A stretch of 10,688 bases of DNA from a virus (IMGVR_UViG_2778261676_000006:1-10688), one strand, 5' to 3'; positions 1-10,688 are shown, counted from the first letter of the stretch. Numbers and translations are program-made. Notes: generated from the sequence alone by a model not told the origin.

Positions 1-996
1 TTATGGACGCATTATGGACATTCCTGACACCGGGTTAAGAGTCACAGCATCTTGTAAGAAATCCGGTGCAAAGTGTGCGTAGGTCATAGTTTGCTGAATG
101 TTAGAATGACCCAGGATGCGCTGCAATGTGATTATGTTACCTCCATTCATTATAAAATGTGTGGCAAATGTATGCCTCAAAACATGTACTGCTTGTCCGT
201 CAGGTAAATCGGGTTTTACTTCCCTGAGAGCGTTACGCACTTTGTAGTAACTGGCATTAAAAAGCCTGCCTGAATTTTTGGTCTTGATCCGTTTAATCAG
301 GTCCTGCGAAACGGGAATTGTCCTGCGTTTTCCGTTTTTAGTTTTCATAAACGTAACCATCTGGTTAATGATGTGTTCAGCTTTTAAATTAGCCACTTCA
401 CTCCAGCGTCCACCAGTAGAAAGGCAGACCAGAGTTGCATTTAATTCATCACCATCAAGCATGGATAACAGCCGCGTAATCTCTTCACTGGACAAAAAAG
501 CCATTTCCGTAACAGCTTCACGTAACCGTTTAATCTCACGGAACGGGTTGTGAGAGTGGTATTCACCGGCGTCAATTAACTTGGTGAACATCCCACTCAT
601 TATTGCCAGATGTCGATTTACGCTGGCTGGTTTTAGACCATCGTTCATCATTACAACGCGATAATCAGTTATCGTTTTCTTTGTTAGCTGGTCAGCTCTG
701 GACACTCCCATTTCTGCAAATTTGGCGATTATTGTCGTTAAACGCCCCCGTTCAATATCTCCACGCTCATGTGATTTTCCGTGATATATCCACCATCTGC
801 CTAACAACTCTGTAAGAGTTCGGCGGTCGGCTGGTTTCTCCAACCACTCTTTGTTGTGGTAGTTAACCAGTACATGACGTTCGAATGCTTGAGCTTCACC
901 TTTAGTTTTAAATTTCCGCCTGATACGTTTTCCATCTGCACCCTGCGGTCTGACGTCCACTTCATAACGACCATCATCGAGCTTTTTAATAGACAT
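1..996 (-). CDS. int: P2-type tyrosine integrase (site-specific recombinase, phage integrase family)
   Basis: 331-aa ORF. C-terminal catalytic box HVLRHTFATHF...LQRILGHSNIQQTMTYAHF (conserved R/H/R/Y pattern of tyrosine recombinases). N-terminus MSIKKLDDGRYEVDVRP matches P2 Int as I recall it. Lies directly downstream of the repressor on the same strand, as in P2. Confidence 0.9.
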   Translation of the reverse strand: MSIKKLDDGRYEVDVRPQGADGKRIRRKFKTKGEAQAFERHVLVNYHNKEWLEKPADRRTLTELLGRWWIYHGKSHERGDIERGRLTTIIAKFAEMGVSRADQLTKKTITDYRVVMMNDGLKPASVNRHLAIMSGMFTKLIDAGEYHSHNPFREIKRLREAVTEMAFLSSEEITRLLSMLDGDELNATLVCLSTGGRWSEVANLKAEHIINQMVTFMKTKNGKRRTIPVSQDLIKRIKTKNSGRLFNASYYKVRNALREVKPDLPDGQAVHVLRHTFATHFIMNGGNIITLQRILGHSNIQQTMTYAHFAPDFLQDAVTLNPVSGMSIMRP

Positions 997-1089
997 AAAG
1001 CCCTCCGATGACGCTGTTAACTTCTACTACTTGAAAATTAATGCAATTTTCTTTCGTACATTTACTACACACATATGCTGAATAAATCG

Positions 1090-1389
1090 TCAGCCAGTCT
1101 TCTGGTCTGAGTGGTGCAAGGTTGTTGAGTCTTGCCCAATGTGTGCGAGAGCCGGGGCTATTTGTCCAGCTGCTGGATCTGTTTCATCAAACATGAACCA
1201 GTCACGATACTTGCGAAAGCGTGGATGCTTAAACAGCTTCATACCTGCTTCCATAGGCATTTTTGATTTTCCTGATTCATATCCATGATATGTGTAGTAA
1301 TTAATTCCAATTAATTCAGCAAGTTCCTTAGTTTTAAGGCGTTCGGATTCACGGATGAGCTTTAGTTTCTCACTTTGTTCACTTGACAT
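1090..1389 (-). CDS. C: P2 C-type immunity repressor (small HTH repressor)
   Basis: The track ORF 1090..1407 uses a TTG start. The internal ATG at 1389 gives 99 aa (MSSEQSEKLKLIRESE...), the length of P2 C. The C-terminal half GQIAPALAHIGQDSTTLHHSDQKTG closely resembles the P2 C C-terminus as I recall it. HTH-like segment LKTKELAELIGINYYTYHGYESG. Sits between int and the divergent cox gene. Confidence 0.75.
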   Translation of the reverse strand: MSSEQSEKLKLIRESERLKTKELAELIGINYYTYHGYESGKSKMPMEAGMKLFKHPRFRKYRDWFMFDETDPAAGQIAPALAHIGQDSTTLHHSDQKTG

Positions 1390-1407
1390 AATTTTGCTAA
1401 TCTCCAA

Positions 1408-1482
1408 TTATATTGTTACTTGGCAATTTGTGATTCACTCAAAAAGGCTCTAGATGGCTCCAGTTGGTGAATCGCAAATCTT
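1408..1482. promoter_or_regulatory. Divergent early promoter/operator region (Pc/Pe-like) between C and cox
   Basis: 75-bp AT-rich spacer between divergent genes. A TATAAT hexamer reads on the minus strand at about 1407-1412 (plus strand attata). Direct repeat aGGCTC / tGGCTC at about 1445-1450 and 1455-1460 (10-bp periodicity) flanks a TAGAT -10-like element on the plus strand, reminiscent of the direct-repeat operators bound by P2-family C repressors. Confidence 0.4.
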
Positions 1483-1497
1483 ATGGAGGATAGCAAA

Positions 1498-1854
1498 GTG
1501 ACGACAAATGTAGAAATTTCTTGTCCAACTAGCGATGAGGCAAGTTTCGAAAATGAAGCCAAACGTAAAAGCATTCAGATTTCAGAGCGCCCATCTGATT
1601 TGCTGTCGAAAGAAGGTTTTGCTCTTTACATCGGTAAGACACCACGCGCGGTGGCTGAAATGGCTAAAGCAGGAAAGCTGCCAGCCTTCTACATGACAGA
1701 CCCATTAAAACCAAGAGGGAAAGCTGAATTATGGATTAATCGCCGTGAGTGGGACAAGTACGCAGCCCAACTGGTTGATGAAGCTCCGACAGAATGGCAT
1801 GACTGGAAAAATCGCATTAGTTACAGCAAATCAAGACATGGCCGTGCGGCTTAA
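1498..1854 (+). CDS. cox: Cox-like excisionase / early-promoter regulator
   Basis: Track ORF 1483..1854. GGAGGA at 1485-1490 followed 7 nt later by in-frame GTG 1498 suggests the real start. Segment GKTPRAVAEMAKAGKLPAFYMTDP resembles the winged-helix core of P2 Cox (GKLPVIDMTDP as recalled). First gene transcribed divergently from C. Confidence 0.6.
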   Translation: MTTNVEISCPTSDEASFENEAKRKSIQISERPSDLLSKEGFALYIGKTPRAVAEMAKAGKLPAFYMTDPLKPRGKAELWINRREWDKYAAQLVDEAPTEWHDWKNRISYSKSRHGRAA

Positions 1855-2035
1855 GGTGGAAAGGATGAACGAGCCTCGTTGTATTGCTCTGTTATTGCGT
1901 AACGAAAGCCCCAGGGCGATTGACTTCACCATCACCCACGGGAAGGGACGCAAGGGAATCATTATCCGTACCAAAAAACAGAGTCCGTTAAAAAAGGCTC
2001 TGACCTTTCTGAAAAGCCGGAGGGTCTGGAAATGA
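1799..2035 (+). CDS. Small early-region protein (P2 orf78-like position), start uncertain
   Basis: Open frame 1745..2035 ends with ATGA overlap into gene B. Candidate starts are ATG 1799 (78 aa), ATG 1838, or ATG 1865 (preceded by AAGGTGGA, the best SD). The stop is firm; the start is not resolvable from sequence alone. Confidence 0.35.
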   Translation: MTGKIALVTANQDMAVRLKVERMNEPRCIALLLRNESPRAIDFTITHGKGRKGIIIRTKKQSPLKKALTFLKSRRVWK

Positions 2036-2532
2036 CAGTGATGACGCTTAACCTCGTCGAAAAACAGCCAGCAGCCATGCGCCGGATAATTGGTAAGCAT
2101 CTGGCCGTCCCTCGCTGGCAGGAGACATGTGATTATTATAATCAGATGATGGAACGCGAACGGCTAACGGTTTGCTTTCATGCGCAGTTAAAACAGCGTC
2201 ACGCAACGATGCGTTTTGAAGAAATGAATGACGTCGAACGTGAACGGCTGGTTTGTGCAATTGATGAACTGCGTGGGGCATTCTCAAAACGCCGTCAGGT
2301 TGGCGCAAGTGAGTATGCATATATTAGTTTTTTAACAGTCAGTCAGCGTCGCACTTTATTTATGCACGCACGACTGACAGAAAAAGAATTTAACCAGCCA
2401 TACTGGCGAATTAATGAGGAATCATGTTACTGGCGTGATGCTTTATTCCGTGCATTACGTGAATTATTCAGCCTGTTTGAGTATGCACCGACAATTCTGA
2501 CGTCGGTAAAACCAGAGCAATATCTGCATTAA
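2032..2532 (+). CDS. B: Replication gene B protein (P2 gpB family, DnaB helicase loader)
   Basis: 166-aa ORF; the sequence MT.MTLNLVEKQPAAMRRIIGKHLAVPRWQ...FEYAPTILTSVKPEQYLH matches P2 B protein as I recall it, and the length is the same. SD GGAGGG lies upstream; the start overlaps the upstream stop (ATGA). Confidence 0.85.
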   Translation: MTVMTLNLVEKQPAAMRRIIGKHLAVPRWQETCDYYNQMMERERLTVCFHAQLKQRHATMRFEEMNDVERERLVCAIDELRGAFSKRRQVGASEYAYISFLTVSQRRTLFMHARLTEKEFNQPYWRINEESCYWRDALFRALRELFSLFEYAPTILTSVKPEQYLH

Positions 2533-2552
2533 ATAATTAACCAGAGTTTTTA

Positions 2553-2581
2553 ACGCACTTAATCGTGCGGGGCTTCTTTTT
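2553..2581 (+). terminator. Weak hairpin plus T-tract between B and the next ORF (possible attenuator)
   Basis: cgcac-ttaatc-gtgcg 5-bp stem followed by gggcttcttttt. Short stem and interrupted T-run, so weak at best. Confidence 0.2.
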
Positions 2582-2595
2582 GCCTGGAGAAAGTC

Positions 2596-2820
2596 ATGCA
2601 TACAGTTTCTGAAAATCAGTGCGGTAAATACGCATTACTGCTGCAACAGGCCAGAACCGAAGCACAGGCCGACGCTGCGACGCGCTTTTCTTCTCATCTT
2701 GACGCCATGATTCGCCATATCACAAAGGCGGAGTTATCCCGCGTGGAGATAGTCGAGCTGCTCAGTCAGGAGTCGGAAAAATTTCACAATATCGGATTGT
2801 CTCGCGGGGAGGTGCTTTGA
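2596..2820 (+). CDS. Hypothetical early-region protein (P2 orf80-like position)
   Basis: 74-aa ORF with SD GGAGA upstream of ATG 2596; same strand and spacing as the small ORFs between B and A in P2-like phages. Confidence 0.65.
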
Positions 2821-3119
2821 TGTCCTGTTCTCATTCAATTGTATTACTGAATAACGCCTTAAAAATCGCCGTTATGAAAAATGGCGATTTATCTCTTATT
2901 CAACTTTGTCTTGATAAAGAAAAACGCGACATAACTGAATCTGTTATCGCGATTTATCAGAATGAATTAAACCTCCTGTCTGATATGGTCAATTTACTTG
3001 TTAAACGCGCTGTGTTCCACAAGCAAATTTCCTCAGTGGATGAACTGACAAAATTAACGACAGAACTCGCCAGTTATTGCGCTGATGTATCCAGGAAACT
3101 TAACGATAAAAGGAGCTGA
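2820..3119 (+). CDS. Hypothetical early-region protein (P2 orf81-like position)
   Basis: Track ORF starts at TTG 2817; ATG 2820 overlaps the upstream stop (TGATG), with SD GGGAGG upstream. About 99 aa. Confidence 0.65.
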   Translation: MSCSHSIVLLNNALKIAVMKNGDLSLIQLCLDKEKRDITESVIAIYQNELNLLSDMVNLLVKRAVFHKQISSVDELTKLTTELASYCADVSRKLNDKRS

Positions 3120-3121
3120 TA

Positions 3122-3223
3122 ATGCCGGACAACGTAGATTTTATTCAGGAACAACAGGCTGAATTACTGGAGCGCCAGATTAACGCGGCAAGGGTAAAAC
3201 ATTGCGGTGTTTCTGCGCTGGTT
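3122..3223 (+). pseudogene. 5' fragment of orf82-like gene (probable TraR/DksA-type zinc-finger protein), truncated at a deletion junction
   Basis: Good SD (AAAGGAG) and ATG 3122. The N-terminus MPDNVDFIQEQQAELLERQINAARVKHCG looks like the start of a TraR/DksA-like small protein, but the C4 zinc-finger cysteines never appear. After about codon 34 the frame continues as an out-of-frame reading of gene A sequence up to 3538. Confidence 0.45.
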
Positions 3224-3993
3224 ACCGTGAACTACGCAAATTGCCTCGCGGCGTCAGCATTGCTGATGAGTTTGACGAGCGCGTCGAGGCTGCACGCGCC
3301 GCCGCAGACAGTGGTGATTTTGCGCTGTATATCAGCGCGCAGGGCGGGGCAAATGTCCCGCGCGATTGTCAGACTGTCAGGGTCGCCCGTAGTCCGTCGG
3401 ATGACGTTAACGAGTACGAGGAAGAAGTCGAGAGAGTGGTCGGCATTTACGCGCCGCATCTCGGCGCGCGTCATATTCATATCACCAGAACCACGGACTG
3501 GCGCATTGTGCCGAAAGTGCCGGTCATTGAGCCTTTGACTTTAAAAAGCGGCATCGCCGCGCCTCGGAGTCCTGTCAATAACTGTGGAAAGCTCACCGGT
3601 GGTGATACTTCGTCACCGGCTCCCACGCCTTCTGAACACGCCGCAGCAGTGCTTAATCTGGTTGATGATGGTGTTATCGAATGGAATGACCCGGAGGTCG
3701 TGAGGGCGCTCAGGGGTGCATTAAAACACGACCTGAGAACGCCAAACCGTCAGCAAAGAAACGGAAGCCCGTTAAAACCACATGAAATTGCACCATCGGC
3801 CAGACTGACCCGGTCGGAAAGAATGCAAATTACCCGTATCCGCGTTGACCTTACTCAGAACGGTATCAGGCCGCAGCGATGGGAGCTTGAGGCGCTGGCG
3901 CGTGGCGCGACCGTAAATTATGACGGGAAAAAATTCACGTATCCGGTCGCTGATGAGTGGCCGGGATTCTCAACAGTAATGGAGTGGAAATGA
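3221..3993 (+). pseudogene. A: 3' fragment (about 258 codons) of P2-type replication initiator gene A, lacking the N-terminal two-thirds
   Basis: The 263-aa open frame has no credible start (opens at TTG 3202 inside the orf82 frame; no SD or ATG near its 5' end). The sequence ...YRELRKLPRGVSIADEFDERVEAARAAADSGDFALYISAQGG...TVMEWK matches the C-terminal region of P2 gpA as I recall it. Full-length A is about 760 aa. Confidence 0.7.
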
Positions 3994-4445
3994 TGGCAAA
4001 AATTCACGAGGTAAAGCTGCACGCAAAATATTTTGACCTTGTGCTGGAAGGAAAGAAACGCGCAGAGTTTCGGAAAAATGACCGTAATTATGAGCGCGGG
4101 GACACGTTGATTTTGCATGAATGGGTGCAGGGTGTGTATACGGGGCGAAAGGTTGAAGCCCGGATAACAGATGTTACTGACTTGTCAGACTGGCTGGAAG
4201 ATTATGTCTTGCTAAGTATTGAGCTGCTTAATACAGGCGCATATGAGTTTGTGAACTGGAAAGAACTTAGTGAGCGTGGTCTGGTATTCAGAATTAATCA
4301 TGAAATTATGCATCAGCTCGGCCTTGCTGTTGTGTATGAACCAGAGACGGGGATGTCTGGCGGGGCAGTGGTTGGTGCGGATGGGATATGGAACTATTCA
4401 GATGAACAGGTGGAGCGTGCACAGCAAAACGGGTGGCTTGGATAA
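3990..4445 (+). CDS. ASCH/DUF3850-like (PUA-fold) protein
   Basis: Track ORF 3957..4445; ATG 3990 overlaps the stop of the A fragment (ATGA). N-terminal KIHEVKLHAKYFDLVLEGKKRAEFRKNDRNYERGDTLILHEW resembles ASCH/DUF3850 domains common in phage early regions. Confidence 0.65.
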   Translation: MMAKIHEVKLHAKYFDLVLEGKKRAEFRKNDRNYERGDTLILHEWVQGVYTGRKVEARITDVTDLSDWLEDYVLLSIELLNTGAYEFVNWKELSERGLVFRINHEIMHQLGLAVVYEPETGMSGGAVVGADGIWNYSDEQVERAQQNGWLG

Positions 4446-4959: not shown

Positions 4960-5196
4960 ATGATGAATATATTTGAACGTATTATAGGTAAAGCTGCTAT
5001 TGAAAAGGAAAGAGAACTGGCGAGGAGGCTTGAAGCATCTGGAACAAACACTGTTGAGGTGGTAGGTCGAGGCGCGATTATCACGTCTAAAGAAGACTTG
5101 GCAAGCTCAGATACAGTAAAATTGATGAAAATTAAAGCAAGAAAAATAGTTTCTGAGCAGGTAAAGCAAGAAGAAAAAATGGCTAAAGGGAATTAA
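4960..5196 (+). CDS. Small charged soluble protein (78 aa), first gene of a two-gene cargo operon
   Basis: GGAGG at 4951-4955 precedes ATG 4960/4963. Lysine/glutamate-rich, no TM segment. The stop is 2 nt before the start of the next gene. Low GC. Confidence 0.6.
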   Translation: MMNIFERIIGKAAIEKERELARRLEASGTNTVEVVGRGAIITSKEDLASSDTVKLMKIKARKIVSEQVKQEEKMAKGN

Positions 5197-5198
5197 TA

Positions 5199-5960
5199 AT
5201 GTTTGCTTTATTAATTATTCCATTACTTGTGAGTGGTTATATTGTATTAACCACTCATCCTTATCATTTCTATAGATTACACCGTTATGATGGGCAGTTG
5301 TTATATATGAAGTCAGCCGCCTTTGGTCTGTGGTGTTTTATATGGACATTGATTATAGCTTACTTAATAAAATGGATATGTCCGAGCTTCCATCCTGTCA
5401 CGATGGTTCGGGAACAATTAGATCTCAAACTTAGTGACAATGGTACTGAAAGAATCATAGGATGGATGATTTTACTTTCATGTGGAACGATATTTTTGGC
5501 TTGGATATGGAGTGTCGGTGCTAGATATTTGGTTATATATAGAGCTAAAATTATAAATTATATCCAAGGGGTAAAGGCTGCCAATATTGATTATGAGAAT
5601 CTTGTCATGCTAAGGATGAGGCAAGAGCTTATTAATGATAATCCAATGGATGAAATATTTTTTGATTCGTTAGTTGATAGACGTTCAATACTTATTACGT
5701 TGCAAAATAAAAAGACATATGTAGGAATTGTTAACGCATTAGGTGAGCCTAACGAGAAAGAAGGACCTAACCAGTATGTTTCAATCTATCCTATTATCTC
5801 TGGGTATAGAGATAAGGATTCATTGAAAGTAATCTTGGTGAATGAATATAGAGAGCTTGAGGATGCTGATACTAGTATCATCTTTCCACTAAAAGAAATT
5901 TCGCAAGTTTCTTGGTTTGATATGGATATTCATAAAATAGTTGAAAATAATAAGGTGTAG
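5199..5960 (+). CDS. Predicted integral membrane protein (3 N-terminal TM helices plus a soluble C-terminal domain of about 145 aa)
   Basis: 253-aa ORF. Hydrophobic segments FALLIIPLLVSGYIVL, AAFGLWCFIWTLIIAYLIKWI and IIGWMILLSCGTIFLAWIWSV. SD AAAGGGAA upstream; tightly coupled to the upstream gene. Low GC. Confidence 0.7.
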   Translation: MFALLIIPLLVSGYIVLTTHPYHFYRLHRYDGQLLYMKSAAFGLWCFIWTLIIAYLIKWICPSFHPVTMVREQLDLKLSDNGTERIIGWMILLSCGTIFLAWIWSVGARYLVIYRAKIINYIQGVKAANIDYENLVMLRMRQELINDNPMDEIFFDSLVDRRSILITLQNKKTYVGIVNALGEPNEKEGPNQYVSIYPIISGYRDKDSLKVILVNEYRELEDADTSIIFPLKEISQVSWFDMDIHKIVENNKV

Positions 5961-5963
5961 TAA

Positions 5964-5988
5964 ATGGTCACCTATAAAAGGTGACCAT
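5964..5988. terminator. Bidirectional intrinsic terminator between the convergent cargo operons
   Basis: Perfect 9-bp inverted repeat ATGGTCACC-tataaaa-GGTGACCAT, followed by a T-run on the + strand (ttattttt) and flanked by an A-rich stretch (T-rich on the - strand). Sits exactly between the stop at 5960 (+) and the stop at 5994 (-). Confidence 0.55.
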
Positions 5989-5993
5989 AATGC

Positions 5994-8258
5994 TTATTTT
6001 TGACGAATCCTGATTTTTGGTTGTTCACGAACAACAATATCAGTTTCTTTCCAACCAAGATTATTTATTTCAACCTCGGCTTCGTTGTAGACTGTAGTAG
6101 AATTGGCAAGAGATCTTAACGTAATAGCCAATACAGCACGTTGAGGTGAAGATAGAGGCTCTTGCTCTGCTCGTCTCTGAACATCAAGTTTAAGTCTCCA
6201 TTGCTCCCCATTTATACCTTGCGGAAATTGTTTTCTATAAACTTTGACTGGAGACCATTTGAAGCCATTTTCTATCAGTACCTTTTCAAATAATTCACTC
6301 TTTTCTTTTATTTGTGGAATTTTTCCGCTATGTATCCATTTAGCGTTAACTGGATCATAAGTGTAAGTCCCGAATGACACATCCACATTAGAACGGCAAT
6401 ATTCGGATGGGTAGTCATAATCAAGCGGTGGAGAATAAACGAGTGTCATAATAATTTCACCTGTGAATTTTCCATCCTCAGTACGTAATGACTGTGGTAT
6501 TACAAATGGCGTTCTACTGAATTCAATACCTTCTCGGGTATCTATTTCAAATAGAAATGTAATCTCATTTTTATTGCAACCAATAATATCATTTATATGA
6601 TCGCTTGGGCGTCCAAATCCTTGATAATTAAACGCATAATGCTCCGTTTTGGCTGGTGAGTTTTTTAACGCAGAATGAATTAATAGTGCCTTGATACGTT
6701 CAGGCGATGGTGAAATAGAACCATTAACATCTAGTTCATGCCACAGTGATGCCGCTAAACTTGAGATTAACGGTGCTGATAAACTTGTGCCAATACTTTC
6801 GCAAAGAGCATTGTCCTCGCCAATAGCTATGATTCCGGTATGTTCACAGTTTAATTTACTGTCACAATTACCTCCAAAGTGATTTATCTCTGGTTTGGGT
6901 ATAAAGGCTGGGCCGGGACCTCTTCTAGAAAAAGATGAAGGTTCAAATCTTTTGACCACAGAGTCAGACGATTCTAAATGGGCAACTGAGCCAACAGTTA
7001 ATGAACGAACAGAATCTGCGGGGGCTGATATTCTGTCATGCCCACCTAATTCTTGAGGAGGCCAGGTTCGTTGAGGATCATAAATGTAGTTGCCGGATGC
7101 TACGACGAAAAGACAATCATGCTCATCATGAAGTGCATTTAAAAAATGCCCCAATTCAGAGAAGCTGTCTTCAGAACATGGGGATTGACAACCTAATGAC
7201 AGATTCCATACACGTACTTCTGGATAGGTGGTCACAGCCTCTCGGATAGCTTTCATTAATTGTGGCAATTTGAGCGTACCATCTTTGGGAAAGGCTGCAA
7301 CATCAACAATTTCAGCTTGGCATTGAGGAAAACCAGCATAGTTATTCAACCATCTTCCATTAATTGCTAAACTTGCAACCATGTTCCCATGAGAATAGTC
7401 GTGTTCTCCTTTTACTAAATCTAAACTATCCCAAATCCATGGCCTAAGTATGTTGTTATTGGGATCGACTCCGCTATCTATAATTCCGAGTAGTGGATAA
7501 TGTTTATCCTCTTGAGGTAAGGGAAAATCATCTAGGTCTAGAGTTTCAGCAGGAATATATTGCGATACTGTATGAGTAAGACCAAATGTTGGCATAGGTT
7601 CTAATTTTCGTATGCCAATAAAACTTGCCAGTTGGGCGATGTTATCATTCCCTTTTACTTCATATATACTCAAATCTGAACTGATATCATACTTTTTGGG
7701 TTTTTGTATTCCTAGTTCATCTGCAAATTCCATTAATTCTTTGTCGATACTGCGGTTAGTTGTTCTATCTTTATGGTCAAAGAGTTTCAGAAGAAAACTA
7801 TCTGATTTATTTTTATCTATAACATCATGGTTAAGACTAAAAGGTTCGATCTTTTCAATTACAGCAATATGTACTGTCCCATTATGAGAATTAGTGCTAT
7901 TTTCAATTTTTTTGCGAAGTTGTGCTAACCCTTTTTCAGTAACACTTATAAGTAATTCTCCAAAATTATCACTGCCTATTACGGGACATGTATTATCACC
8001 TAATAGGCTTGATGGGCGATGTGACTTAGCAAGAGCTTTTTCATGAAGAGTAACTCTAGCCACCGCCGGTATATTGGGCCATTTTTTAAATGAGCTCTGG
8101 AAAAAATTTTTAACGTCATCGACTTCTTGTTTGAGTCTATTTTTTAGACTAGTTGTTACTGTTCGGATAGGTTGTTTCTTTCCGAAATTATATGTTTTTT
8201 CAGTAAAATCTTGAGGTGTCGCCTCAATTATTTTTATTGGTCTTTCTTTGTTACTCAT
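5994..8258 (-). CDS. ietS: S8 subtilisin-family serine peptidase, cytoplasmic, with extra N- and C-terminal domains (IetS-like)
   Basis: 754-aa ORF. S8 catalytic motifs in canonical order: Asp LLGIIDSGVD, His HGNMVASLA, oxyanion Asn VVASGNY, Ser GTSLSAPLISSLAA. No N-terminal signal peptide (MSNKERPIKIIEATPQDF). The start overlaps the stop of the upstream ATPase (ATGA at 8255-8258). Confidence 0.8.
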   Translation of the reverse strand: MSNKERPIKIIEATPQDFTEKTYNFGKKQPIRTVTTSLKNRLKQEVDDVKNFFQSSFKKWPNIPAVARVTLHEKALAKSHRPSSLLGDNTCPVIGSDNFGELLISVTEKGLAQLRKKIENSTNSHNGTVHIAVIEKIEPFSLNHDVIDKNKSDSFLLKLFDHKDRTTNRSIDKELMEFADELGIQKPKKYDISSDLSIYEVKGNDNIAQLASFIGIRKLEPMPTFGLTHTVSQYIPAETLDLDDFPLPQEDKHYPLLGIIDSGVDPNNNILRPWIWDSLDLVKGEHDYSHGNMVASLAINGRWLNNYAGFPQCQAEIVDVAAFPKDGTLKLPQLMKAIREAVTTYPEVRVWNLSLGCQSPCSEDSFSELGHFLNALHDEHDCLFVVASGNYIYDPQRTWPPQELGGHDRISAPADSVRSLTVGSVAHLESSDSVVKRFEPSSFSRRGPGPAFIPKPEINHFGGNCDSKLNCEHTGIIAIGEDNALCESIGTSLSAPLISSLAASLWHELDVNGSISPSPERIKALLIHSALKNSPAKTEHYAFNYQGFGRPSDHINDIIGCNKNEITFLFEIDTREGIEFSRTPFVIPQSLRTEDGKFTGEIIMTLVYSPPLDYDYPSEYCRSNVDVSFGTYTYDPVNAKWIHSGKIPQIKEKSELFEKVLIENGFKWSPVKVYRKQFPQGINGEQWRLKLDVQRRAEQEPLSSPQRAVLAITLRSLANSTTVYNEAEVEINNLGWKETDIVVREQPKIRIRQK

Positions 8259-9418
8259 AATATCTCTCTATAGTTCTTAGTTAGCCTTGACACTTTAGCA
8301 TTTGAAAGCCCTAGTATTTTTGCTATCTTTCGTATTGTAAATCTTTTGGGATTGTATTCTCTGAGAGTGGTCACAATCTTTATAAGTAAATTATCTTCTT
8401 CATCAAATGTAACTCCCTTCGCTTCTAAGATAGCCTCGACTAAAAATCGGGTATCGATTTGTTTATTATTGTAAACCAGAGCATGTCGCTCAGATCTTAA
8501 GCAGCATTGTTCTATAAATGAGCAGTTTAGCCCTGATGATATTTCCGCAAGGTCATCAACAAAATCGTCATATGTAGCTTTTATGTTTGAATATTGTTCA
8601 AATAGTTGTTTTCTGACTTCAAAATTAGGCAATCCAATAGATATTCTATACTCAAAGCGCCTCCAAACTGCGCTATCTAGAAGATTTTCATGATTACTTG
8701 CAGCAATCAATATTGTTTCTTCAGGTAGATTGTCAATATTTTGCAATAAAGAAACCACCACCCTCTTCAGTTCACCTAACTCATGCTGATCATCTCTAGC
8801 CTTTGCTAGAGAATCTAGTTCATCTAGAAATAAAACACATGGTGCTTTACTTGCATACTCAAATAGCTGCCTGATATTTTTAGAAGTAGACCCCAGATAT
8901 GATGAGACTAAGGAGTCACATCTTGCAGTAAGAAGCGGTAAATTTAGACAGGATGCAATATATTTTGATGTCAAGGTTTTACCACAACCTGGTGGCCCAT
9001 ATAAAATCATAGAGGATGTCACGCCAAGACCGGCATCCTTTAATTCTTTAGCTCGTTCAGTGAAAGTCAAAAATTCTTTAATTTTTTTCAGAGTGCTATC
9101 TTTCAACAATGGGAGTTGAATTTCAGAAGACGGTTGAGTTACGTCTGCTAAATCAAATTTAGTTTCTTTATCTACAGGTAATGTATCAAGACGTTCAAAA
9201 ATAGGTGATGTACTGCGTGATACTTTCTGCAAGTTAAACGTGTTTTTATCTTGAATACTACCTCTAATGGCTGAAGCAAGCTCAGGCAGCCCCATAGAAT
9301 CATAGGAACGCGCGAGTTTCGAAGCCTGCCGAACAAAAGCAACTTTATCCCCTTTGAGTCCAAGACTGATAAGCTGCGAAAGTATCTCGTTTGTGGTCAT
9401 TTGTGATACAAACCTCAT
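8255..9418 (-). CDS. ietA: AAA+ ATPase with C-terminal HTH-like tail (IetA-like)
   Basis: 387-aa ORF. Walker A GPPGCGKT (about 8975-8998), Walker B CVLFLDELD, sensor-1 LIAASNHEN, probable Arg finger in VWRRFEY. C-terminal IRKIAKILGLSNAKVSRLTKNY resembles a helix-turn-helix. Translationally coupled to the downstream S8 peptidase. Confidence 0.8.
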   Translation of the reverse strand: MRFVSQMTTNEILSQLISLGLKGDKVAFVRQASKLARSYDSMGLPELASAIRGSIQDKNTFNLQKVSRSTSPIFERLDTLPVDKETKFDLADVTQPSSEIQLPLLKDSTLKKIKEFLTFTERAKELKDAGLGVTSSMILYGPPGCGKTLTSKYIASCLNLPLLTARCDSLVSSYLGSTSKNIRQLFEYASKAPCVLFLDELDSLAKARDDQHELGELKRVVVSLLQNIDNLPEETILIAASNHENLLDSAVWRRFEYRISIGLPNFEVRKQLFEQYSNIKATYDDFVDDLAEISSGLNCSFIEQCCLRSERHALVYNNKQIDTRFLVEAILEAKGVTFDEEDNLLIKIVTTLREYNPKRFTIRKIAKILGLSNAKVSRLTKNYREIL

Positions 9419-9600
9419 TAATCTGTTGTCTAAATGGCTTATAGGTGAGACAAATTTCTATTTTAATGTAGTTTATATGTATTTTGGTGAAACGAACACT
9501 ATGTTTTACATAAATCTTTCAGGTTTGGAGTTCTTGGAGGGCATAGAGTTGCATCAATTTGCATTCTAATTAGACTTTTTTATTGCTATCGTATTCTACA
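9419..9600 (-). promoter_or_regulatory. AT-rich upstream region, presumed promoter of the ATPase-peptidase operon
   Basis: About 180 bp of AT-rich non-coding sequence upstream of the ATPase start on the minus strand, with several -10/-35-like hexamers; no single promoter can be assigned by eye. Confidence 0.3.
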
Positions 9601-9659
9601 TGTGACTAGGTCTGCCCTTCCTGATGCGTTTGCATTAAAACCTCCCCATGAAGCGGGCG

Positions 9660-9678
9660 GGCGAGGCGGGGAAAGCAC
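9660..9678. other. cos site (19-nt cohesive-end sequence of P2/P4 type)
   Basis: GGCGAGGCGGGGAAAGCAC matches the P2/P4 cohesive-end sequence as I recall it. It lies where cos is expected, between the cargo and the portal-side end of the genome. Confidence 0.6.
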
Positions 9679-9810
9679 TGCGCGCTGGCGGTGGTGCTGA
9701 TTTTATTTTTTCAGCGTCTGAGCGCGTCGTGATGGCGTTTAGATTGTGTTCCGGGGCCTGCGGGATGTTTTGCGCGGAGGTGAGCGTGTGAGGGCGTGAT
9801 GACGGGGTGT

Positions 9811-9832
9811 AAAAAAGCCGCCCGCAGGCGGC
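9811..9832 (-). terminator. Minus-strand intrinsic terminator (in P2 would end the leftward portal/terminase operon)
   Basis: On the minus strand: GCCGCC-tgcg-GGCGGC hairpin followed by TTTTTT (plus strand reads aaaaaa gccgcccgcaggcggc). Confidence 0.45.
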
Positions 9833-9938
9833 GATGTTCAGCCGTTGTCAGTGTCCAGTGAGTAGTTTTTAAAGCGGATGACCTCCTGACCGAGCCAGCC
9901 GTTTATTTCCCGAATCCTGTCCTGTAGCCTCCCGTAAC

Positions 9939-10688
9939 AGGCTGGAAGCCAGTGTCGCTCCGTCACTGGCCGGAATTAAAATCCCGCACATCGACCAGTC
10001 GCAGGAGTCTGATGCAAAATTCCTGACCCGCCTTGCTGAACGCAACGGCGGTGAGGTGTCGGTAAAAATGGGAAAATTGTTGTTTCTCAAAGCGGGGCAG
10101 GGGGTGACGGCCAGCGGTAAAAAAATCCCGCAGATTACCATCGCCCGCAGCGACGGCGACCGTCATCATTTTGCGATTGCTGACCGTGGAGCCTACACCG
10201 GCGTAACGGCAAAGTGGTTACACACCAAAGACCCGAAGCCACAAAAGCAGAAGGTAAAACTGAAACGCAAAAAGAAAGAGAAACACCTGCGCGCACTGGA
10301 GCACCCGAAAGCGAAACCGGTCACGCAGAAGAAAGCGCCAAAAGTACCGGAAGCGCGCGAAGGTGAATACATGGCCGGTGAGGATGACAATGTTTTTGCC
10401 CTGACCACGGTATATGCCACGAAAGCGCAGGCCATGCGCGCCGCTCAGGCGAAGTGGGATAAACTGCAACGGGGCGTTGCGGAGTTCTCCATCAGCCTGG
10501 CTACCGGTCGGGCAGATATTTACACGGAAACACCGGTTAAGGTGTCAGGCTTTAAGCGTGTCATAGACGAGCAGGACTGGACCATCACTAAGGTGACACA
10601 TTTTCTGAATAATAGCGGCTTCACGACGTCCTTAGAGCTTGAGGTCAGGCTTTCTGATGTGGAGTACGAAACAGAAGATGATGAGTGA
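9939..10688 (+). pseudogene. D: 5'-truncated tail gene D (P2 gpD / phage late control D family), C-terminal part only
   Basis: The frame opens right after a stop at 9936-9938. The sequence IKIPHIDQSQESDAKFLTRLAERNGGEVSVKMGKLLFLKAGQG...SLELEVRLSDVEYETEDDE matches the C-terminal region of P2 gpD as I recall it (full length about 387 aa). The first standard start is GTG 10056 (track ORF 10056..10688). Only about 260 bp separate it from cos, with no N-terminal coding sequence. Confidence 0.75.

Follow-up and report, generated by a model that had tools for sequence, protein, structure and literature searches.

The ietAS locus

A 10,688-nucleotide stretch of viral DNA (IMGVR_UViG_2778261676_000006:1-10688; hereafter, the window) was analysed with respect to IetA, an AAA+ ATPase encoded beside its protease partner IetS, and in particular to the C-terminal tail of IetA and the region upstream of its gene. 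IetAS is a widespread anti-phage and plasmid-stabilising pair. In homologous systems, IetA acts as an antitoxin (PMC13069673; PMC5006074), and the mechanism of IetAS was still called unknown in 2026 (PMC13069673). The two genes and the part of the ATPase preceding the tail were located as follows.

8255..9400, minus strand: ietA coding sequence, AAA+ ATPase, 381 amino acids (aa) from the conserved ATG at 9400
5994..8258, minus strand: ietS, S8 (subtilisin-like) protease, 754 aa, the toxin/effector partner (PADLOC IetS, expect value (E) 1e-273; Pfam Peptidase_S8)
8255..8258, minus strand: ATGA shared by the stop codon of ietA and the start codon of ietS (open reading frame (ORF) coordinates and sequence)
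8633..9010, minus strand: AAA+ core of IetA, residues 137-262 (Pfam AAA, E 1e-31)
8420..8623, minus strand: AAA lid of IetA, alpha-helical subdomain, residues 266-333 (helices from AlphaFold2 (AF2))

The longest ORF (8255-9418) encodes 387 aa from an ATG at 9418, and its numbering is used for residues throughout. This ATG was not conserved among eight related loci, whereas the ATG at 9400 and the Shine-Dalgarno (SD) sequence GAGG preceding it were conserved, in agreement with the RefSeq annotation of IetA as a 381-aa protein. The protein matched the PADLOC IetA profiles PDLC02196 (E 1.4e-131, residues 9-382) and PDLC02195 (E 1.4e-99). Along with this profile match, the classic-clade AAA+ core and the adjacent, co-oriented S8 protease gene are features of the IetA family. 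The window genes agreed with known IetAS systems in membership, in which no difference was found, as well as in gene order and the overlapping stop and start codons. Judged from its sequence, the locus is an ordinary IetAS system, already catalogued and set in a hotspot of a P2-type prophage. The cassette in related E. coli genomes is flanked by P2 replication gene A on one side and portal gene Q on the other, an interval described as a defence hotspot (PMC9122126). The ATGA overlap suggests translational coupling of ietA and ietS.

The AAA+ core contained the Walker A motif GPPGCGKT, the Walker B motif LFLDELD, sensor-1 N242 and the arginines R253 and R254, and G141-K147, D199, N242, R253 and R254 were invariant in a 109-sequence alignment. 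The nearest solved structures were VAT, Rix7, p97, Rpt and FtsH, which places IetA in the classic clade; a PDB sequence search with the full protein matched nothing more specific than classic-clade AAA+ chains, and no IetA structure was among them. The lid helices in the AF2 model spanned residues 266-274, 277-280, 286-293, 299-316 and 323-333. An identity as a sigma-54 activator of the NtrC family was rejected on the low Sigma54_activ_2 score (E 0.012; 16.2 bits, under the cutoff of 25) and the absence of any HTH_8 match in the window protein; the likeness to these activators is an architectural analogy only.

A helix-turn-helix tail after the AAA lid

The part of IetA following the lid was resolved by AF2 into three helices with the arrangement of a helix-turn-helix (HTH) unit.

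8258..8398, minus strand: tri-helical HTH module, residues 341-387 (AF2 of the full-length protein and the isolated tail, Foldseek, Pfam matches of orthologues, profile search)
8354..8398, minus strand: HTH helix 1, residues 341-355, DNLLIKIVTTLREYN (AF2)
8312..8335, minus strand: HTH helix 2, residues 362-369, just after the nearly invariant F360-T361 (AF2)
8261..8302, minus strand: HTH helix 3, the predicted recognition helix, residues 373-386, NAKVSRLTKNYREI, with the nearly invariant S372 as N-cap (AF2)

The original prediction had ascribed an HTH-like pattern to the peptide encoded at 8258-8344. Translation of the minus strand from 8344 to 8255 yielded exactly RFTIRKIAKILGLSNAKVSRLTKNYREIL followed by a stop codon, that is, residues 359-387 at the C-terminus of the IetA ORF. 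Within it, IRKIAKILGLSNAKVSRLTK fits the classic 20-residue HTH register, with Ala at position 5, Gly at position 9 and hydrophobic residues at positions 4, 8, 10, 15 and 18. The proposed extent of about 29 residues covered helix 2, the turn and helix 3 but missed the preceding helix, and the unit begins approximately 18 residues earlier.

Modelling on the 109-sequence alignment gave an overall predicted local distance difference test (pLDDT) score of 87 and placed the three tail helices after the lid at pLDDT 89-96. A Foldseek search with the full IetA model was dominated by Rpt, p97 and FtsH and was uninformative on the tail, which was therefore folded and searched alone. The isolated last 52 residues formed the same three helices (pLDDT 90; predicted template modelling score 0.71). 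Their best Foldseek neighbours were HTH DNA-binding domains, among them that of B. subtilis DeoR on its operator (7bhy; template modelling (TM) score 0.76/0.70, root-mean-square deviation 2.5 over 50 columns). Other neighbours were LsrR, SorC, Fis, sigma region 4, Lrp, a resolvase and the DNA-binding domain of NtrC1, and a mitoribosomal HTH-like protein was also among them.

Orthologues linked to IetS but lacking the tail were found among both the genome-derived (10 of 36) and the viral-contig sequences (3 of 31). They end right after the last lid helix, at aligned residue 336 or thereabouts, and ietS begins a few bases later. Since these 13 orthologues stop at the lid, the tail is an optional add-on and not a lid helix. 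The choice between an independent HTH, as had been proposed, and an integral helix of the lid is thus settled for the former, given that the lid ends at residue 333, the tail folds alone and the 13 orthologues do without it. In these models, the tail is a basic, tri-helical HTH module, predicted to bind DNA and appended after the lid of IetA. Helix 1 aligned weakly with the post-lid C-terminal helix of the D2 domain of VAT and p97, and it may derive from that element.

The tail-less proteins (L016, L021, L025, L029, L032, L042, L043, L048, L052, L054, L119, L134 and L137) are approximately 330 aa long and match the shorter profile PDLC04232. They are paired with more divergent, often longer IetS proteins, and their genes largely lack the phased upstream repeats described below. 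This subfamily may be regulated differently.

Taken alone, the HTH pattern of the window tail appears only marginally above chance; together with the evidence from its relatives, the sequence pattern is far beyond chance. The tail was present in all 108 homologues of 38-88% identity, with the consensus LRxxNxKxFTxRxLAxxFGxSxGKISxL and at least 90% conservation of F360, T361 and S372. In distant IetA genes adjoining an IetS gene, tails at the same position exceeded the curated Pfam cutoffs for several HTH families: HTH_23 (33.0 bits, cutoff 24.6) and HTH_3 (24.4 bits, cutoff 23) in L028, HTH_38 (28.4 bits, cutoff 27) in L026, and HTH_24 (22.7 bits, cutoff 21.9) in L012. Pfam matches among the tails also included Xre-like-HTH and AbiEi_4. 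A tail profile searched against 1.84 billion representative proteins retrieved IetA proteins and fragments together with multi-HTH proteins at library-wide E values down to 5e-11, and additionally HNH/NUMOD endonucleases with a C-terminal HTH. Furthermore, the tail is markedly basic, with a net charge of +8 over the 32 residues from N356 compared with -3 for the first 335 residues; the family means per residue were +0.12 for the tail and -0.01 for the upstream part.

Among the profile matches, P0131, P0200, P0122, P0125 and P0170 either resembled HNH/NUMOD4 homing endonucleases whose C-terminal HTH scored as Pfam MRP-L20 or comprised three to six tandem HTH units. MRP-L20 was also the commonest Pfam match among the IetA tails (20 of 79), and its occurrence in both groups suggests a common HTH subtype. 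The last, non-conserved codons of the tail (YREIL; 8255-8275, minus strand) contain a purine-rich AGAGAG at the position expected for the ribosome-binding site (RBS) of ietS; the variable extreme C-terminus of IetA may thus reflect an RNA-level rather than a protein-level constraint.

Direct repeats upstream of ietA

An alignment was made of the 5' regions at nine loci with IetA identities of 54-100% (E. coli, Pectobacterium, Enterobacter/Scandinavium, Yersinia, Serratia and metagenomes). Their genomic contexts were of three kinds: P2 hotspots, a Pectobacterium island and a chromosomal site. Conservation was highest in three 8-nt blocks, with mean pairwise identities of 0.82-0.88 against 0.42 overall, and these blocks were boxes of one motif.

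9488..9495, minus strand: Box 1, TCGTTTCA, the distal repeat, a candidate operator (third most conserved block, identity 0.82)
9446..9453, minus strand: Box 2, TTGTCTCA, within the 17-nt spacer of the weak putative promoter (identity 0.85)
9404..9411, minus strand: Box 3, TTGTATCA, between the SD sequence GAGG (9413-9416) and the ATG at 9400 (most conserved block, identity 0.88)
9438..9466, minus strand: putative sigma-70 promoter, -35 TTAAAA at 9461-9466, 17-nt spacer, -10 TATAAG at 9438-9443 (by eye only)

The boxes share the motif TTGTnTCA (GTTTCA in Box 1), all point the same way and are spaced at 41-42 bp (42 bp in the window), at positions -95, -53 and -11 relative to the ietA ATG. The only two occurrences of TTGTNTCA in the 10.7-kb window were both in these boxes. 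A -10-like hexamer followed Box 2 in most of the nine loci. A consensus promoter scan found no sigma-70 site upstream of ietA, and its intragenic matches were no commoner than in shuffled sequences. An inverted-repeat search of the same upstream region returned only weak pairs and no palindromic operator, and the PADLOC and domain scans detected no recognisable DNA-binding domain in the other cassette proteins.

The dyad of P2 Ogr and late promoters (TGT-N12-ACA) and the half-sites of CRP and PhoP were rejected by inspection of their consensus sequences, given a mismatch in spacing and flanks and the presence of the boxes outside P2 prophages as well. A second cis-element, distinct from the TTGTnTCA boxes, lies approximately 140-165 nt upstream of the ietA start (9541-9564, minus strand) and consists of two to three copies of ATGCA(A) at 10-bp spacing; it was conserved in eight of the nine enterobacterial loci.

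Phased repeats across phyla

A per-locus count of the most repeated 8-mer had too little power for the wider family and was replaced by a pooled histogram of offsets, in which direct 8-mer repeats with at most one mismatch were counted in the 150 nt upstream of ietA at 30 tail-bearing loci from many phyla. Sharp peaks appeared at offsets of 20-21 (11 and 11 repeats) and 40-42 (9, 4 and 10), against a background of 0-4. In total, 44 repeats fell in the target offsets {20-22, 41-43, 62-64}, compared with 16.4±4.7 in dinucleotide shuffles (maximum 28). In contrast, 10 tail-less loci had no repeats at 20-22 or 40-43 (Fisher p 0.006). No matching peak occurred at offsets of 10-11 or 31-32, and the repeats are thus not simple A-tract phasing.

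Because the target had been picked after the discovery loci were viewed, the same test was redone with the identical preset target on a held-out set of 21 non-redundant tail-bearing loci from IMG/VR. Here, offsets of 21, 42 and 63 yielded 18, 9 and 6 repeats, respectively, and the target contained 51 of 132 repeats compared with 11.8±3.7 in shuffled sequences, none of the 200 shuffles being as high. In a positional control on 51 tail-bearing loci, 33% of the repeats fell in the target at -150..+3, compared with 7%-18% in six other intervals and an expectation of 14.5%.

The boxes were lineage-specific: TTGTnTCA in the clade of the window, and TCTTCAy, wTwCGTTC, GTTwACAT, TTGACrAT, an (A)TAAC type, ATGGAAAT and TGGTAyAT elsewhere. 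These sequences tracked clades with different recognition helices, a qualitative correspondence that is confounded by shared ancestry.

Proposed autoregulation and alternative explanations

The autoregulation raised in the original prediction gained indirect but replicated support from the presence of phased direct repeats specifically upstream of tail-bearing ietA. The computational observations are the fold of the tail, its optional occurrence, conservation and charge, and the existence, phasing and tail association of the repeats. From these we infer that IetA itself binds the repeats, that binding represses the operon and that an oligomer sets the geometry. We consider it somewhat probable that the HTH tail binds its own 5' region, resulting in antitoxin-style autoregulation by an oligomeric ATPase. 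IetA would form a rotationally symmetric AAA+ oligomer presenting its HTH tails head-to-tail, and these tails would dock on short direct repeats placed two helical turns apart (four in the clade of the window) just upstream of ietA. The docking sites in the window would be the three TTGTnTCA boxes, one in the spacer of the putative promoter and one between the SD sequence and the start codon. With the boxes occupied, transcription of ietA and ietS as a translationally coupled operon would be repressed or tuned, much as type II antitoxins control their own operons. IetA is proposed as the binder because no other recognisable DNA-binding domain is encoded in the cassette and because the boxes travel with the cassette between contexts. 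Repeats that are direct rather than inverted and recur at every two turns suit an oligomer with head-to-tail subunits, for example an AAA+ ring or spiral, and not a dyad-symmetric dimer. A 21-bp step (approximately 71 Å) would be roughly the distance between neighbours at the rim of an AAA+ hexamer of 120-150 Å.

Several points weigh against this autoregulatory model. The window tail scored under every curated Pfam cutoff (best HTH_28, E 8e-4, 19.8 bits, cutoff 25; the HTH_23 match, E 1.7e-3, 18.5 bits, was also sub-cutoff). The Foldseek E values of the 52-residue tail were at least 0.15 throughout, which is attributable to the small size of the domain, and those of the tail profile against PDB sequences were likewise at least 0.15, although the matches were mostly HTH proteins. 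On the DNA side, the 21/42-bp target was chosen with the discovery loci in view, which the held-out set mitigates; approximately one-third of the tail-bearing loci had no phased repeat under the criterion used; and the loci are phylogenetically related, with tail-less loci that are few (13) and GC-richer. The ietA promoter is putative, being a weak consensus match recognised by eye and missed by the scan, and Box 3 lies in the 5' untranslated region (UTR), where it could act at the RNA level. In addition, in the homologous operon sgiAT, activation rather than repression was suggested to be needed for expression (PMC5006074).

One alternative, the sensing also raised in the original prediction, is that the tail serves as a sensor or recruiter: its binding of nucleic acid, from phage or of any kind, or of a replication intermediate would switch the ATPase to release IetS, the repeats being unrelated or secondary. 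The strongly basic charge is in line with this idea, and so is a fold resembling that of generic binders of DNA and RNA, among them rRNA-binding proteins of the mitoribosome. The same holds for phage mutants escaping ietAS with changes in replication-associated or unknown proteins and for a trigger mechanism described as unknown (10.1101/2022.08.27.505566; PMC13069673), as well as for a variant system that recruits an SNF2 helicase, hinting at a connection with nucleic acids (PMC13069673). However, a sensor leaves unexplained why lineage-specific, 21-bp-phased repeats occur in the 150 nt upstream of tail-bearing but not tail-less ietA, the recognition helix shows the within-clade conservation that a specific site would impose, and the known trigger of the B. 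cereus ietAS is the phage protein YosG expressed alone, without phage DNA (10.1101/2022.08.27.505566). A sensor role appears fairly unlikely. The same repeats are left unexplained if the three helices make protein-protein contacts without nucleic acid, whether by docking IetS, by stabilising the ring like the C-terminal helix of Vps4 or p97 D2, or by binding a phage trigger protein. Such contacts would fit the weak alignment of helix 1 with the helix following the lid in VAT D2 and the high pLDDT of the linker, which suggests that the tail is held in a fixed position on the lid. They would also fit the use of sigma region 4-like and HTH folds as surfaces for protein interaction, anti-sigma complexes being among the Foldseek matches. 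The canonical A5/G9/V15 register, the concentration of the +8 charge on helices 2 and 3 and the scoring of orthologous tails as standard DNA-binding HTH families argue against them, and we regard this explanation as quite unlikely.

The repeats could also be real but read by a host or prophage factor, or be part of an intrinsic promoter architecture such as curved DNA, their link with the tail reflecting shared ancestry and base composition. The loci are interrelated, the tail-less ones few and GC-richer, and the boxes A/T-rich; moreover, the conserved ATGCA motif repeated every 10 bp further upstream requires another explanation. Nevertheless, A-tract phasing would give peaks at 10-11 or 31-32 rather than the observed 20-21 and 40-42, dinucleotide-preserving shuffles never attained the observed count, and the boxes accompany the cassette in P2 hotspots, at the chromosomal site and in the Pectobacterium island. 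Since the motifs differ from Planctomycetes to Firmicutes, no single host factor fits the boxes across phyla, and a reader other than IetA seems improbable. Finally, the segment could simply close the AAA lid and resemble an HTH by chance. The sub-threshold Pfam scores of the window tail would agree with this, whereas the completion of the lid at residue 333, the autonomous folding and the 13 tail-less orthologues already contradict it, as do the Pfam scores of orthologous tails, the conservation of the tail across phyla and the retrieval of HTH proteins by its profile; this explanation is scarcely credible.

An extension of the autoregulatory model is that a ring-shaped IetA is parked on the promoter repeats through up to six HTH tails, so that DNA occupancy, the ATPase or oligomeric state and the restraint of IetS are mechanically coupled. 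This extension is speculative and, in our estimation, unlikely to hold. If it were true, remodelling or titration of the IetA ring by a phage trigger would both lift the repression of the operon and release the protease. Such a transcription-coupled switch would be undescribed for any AAA+/protease defence pair, and among classic-clade AAA+ unfoldases, IetA would be a rare example of a regulator that binds DNA in a sequence-specific manner.

Comparison with known systems

New for IetAS are the description of a C-terminal HTH module and that of phased upstream repeats. The literature searched, the coverage of which was incomplete, contained no mention of an HTH in IetA or of phased repeats at ietA; one NCBI record (P0077) names an IetA homologue 'DNA-binding protein'. 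The closest functional parallel is offered by type II antitoxins with an HTH (HigA, MqsA, HipB and Xre-type proteins, and also AbiEi), in which, as in IetA, the neutralising partner bears a small HTH. The candidate operators likewise overlap the putative promoter and the RBS of their own bicistronic, translationally coupled operon. Unlike in these antitoxins, the HTH of IetA is carried by an AAA+ motor of approximately 340 residues and not by a small neutralising peptide domain, and the candidate sites are direct repeats 21 or 42 bp apart instead of the palindromes bound by dimeric antitoxins.

In architecture, IetA resembles the bacterial enhancer-binding proteins NtrC and PspF (with a Fis-type HTH_8) and DnaA (domain IV), in which an AAA+ domain is followed by a C-terminal HTH of approximately 50 residues and repeated sites lie near a promoter or origin. 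In contrast to them, IetA falls outside the sigma-54 activator and initiator clades and is a member of the classic clade (p97-, Rpt-, FtsH- and Vps4-like), and its partner is a protease rather than RNA polymerase or a helicase loader. The HTHs of SorC/DeoR regulators were the best structural neighbours of the tail (7bhy, 8r7y, 4go1 and 2w48; TM scores 0.60-0.76, 25%-33% identity, E at least 0.4), and DeoR was also a weak sequence match. IetA differs from them in that its HTH is C-terminal instead of N-terminal and a sugar-phosphate-binding effector domain is missing. An identity as a SorC/DeoR regulator was rejected, as only the HTH is similar and the rest of IetA is an AAA+ ATPase.

The iterons of plasmid Rep proteins are direct repeats with a period of approximately 22 bp that are read by head-to-tail monomers. 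The ietA repeats are similarly short, direct and spaced at every two helical turns. They differ from iterons in that the boxes are approximately 8 bp long, number about three and lie at a putative promoter or 5' UTR and not at an origin, and no Rep-like protein is present.

The occurrence of a predicted DNA-binding module in most IetA proteins, together with repeats phased at two turns, provides a concrete and cheap experimental handle. It opens the questions of how the operon is controlled, how the amounts of ATPase and protease are balanced and whether DNA occupancy is part of sensing. The division into tail-bearing and tail-less proteins is a natural subdivision of the IetA family for annotation tools, and cloning of ietAS 'with native promoter' brings the candidate operator array along.

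Neighbouring genes and prophage remnant

A gene convergent to ietS (5199-5960, plus strand) has a 253-aa product without any Pfam or PADLOC match, for which three transmembrane helices are predicted in the N-terminal part. It was kept in that position at 74%-87% identity in three genomic contexts (L081-L086), and this subtype of IetAS could include it as a third component. A 78-aa ORF (4960-5196, plus strand) with no family match precedes it by a gap of 2 nt; among the loci compared, the near-identical E. coli locus (L176) alone shared this ORF. Between the gene of the 253-aa protein and ietS, a perfect hairpin with a 10-bp stem (5964-5988; ATGGTCACCT...AGGTGACCAT) is probably a bidirectional terminator.

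The window is a degraded P2-like prophage (1-4445 and 9620-10688), which also contains DUF2732, DUF5405 and ASCH/DUF3850 genes in addition to the following.

1-996: int, prophage gene
1090-1407: C-like repressor, prophage gene
1483-1854: cox, prophage gene
about 3122-3993: remnant of replication gene A, short or frameshifted
10056-10688: 5'-truncated tail gene D (Phage_GPD profile positions 152-304)

In intact relatives, portal gene Q follows the cassette, whereas the cassette in the window abuts the 5'-truncated gene D at that place, indicating that the structural region from Q to D has been deleted.

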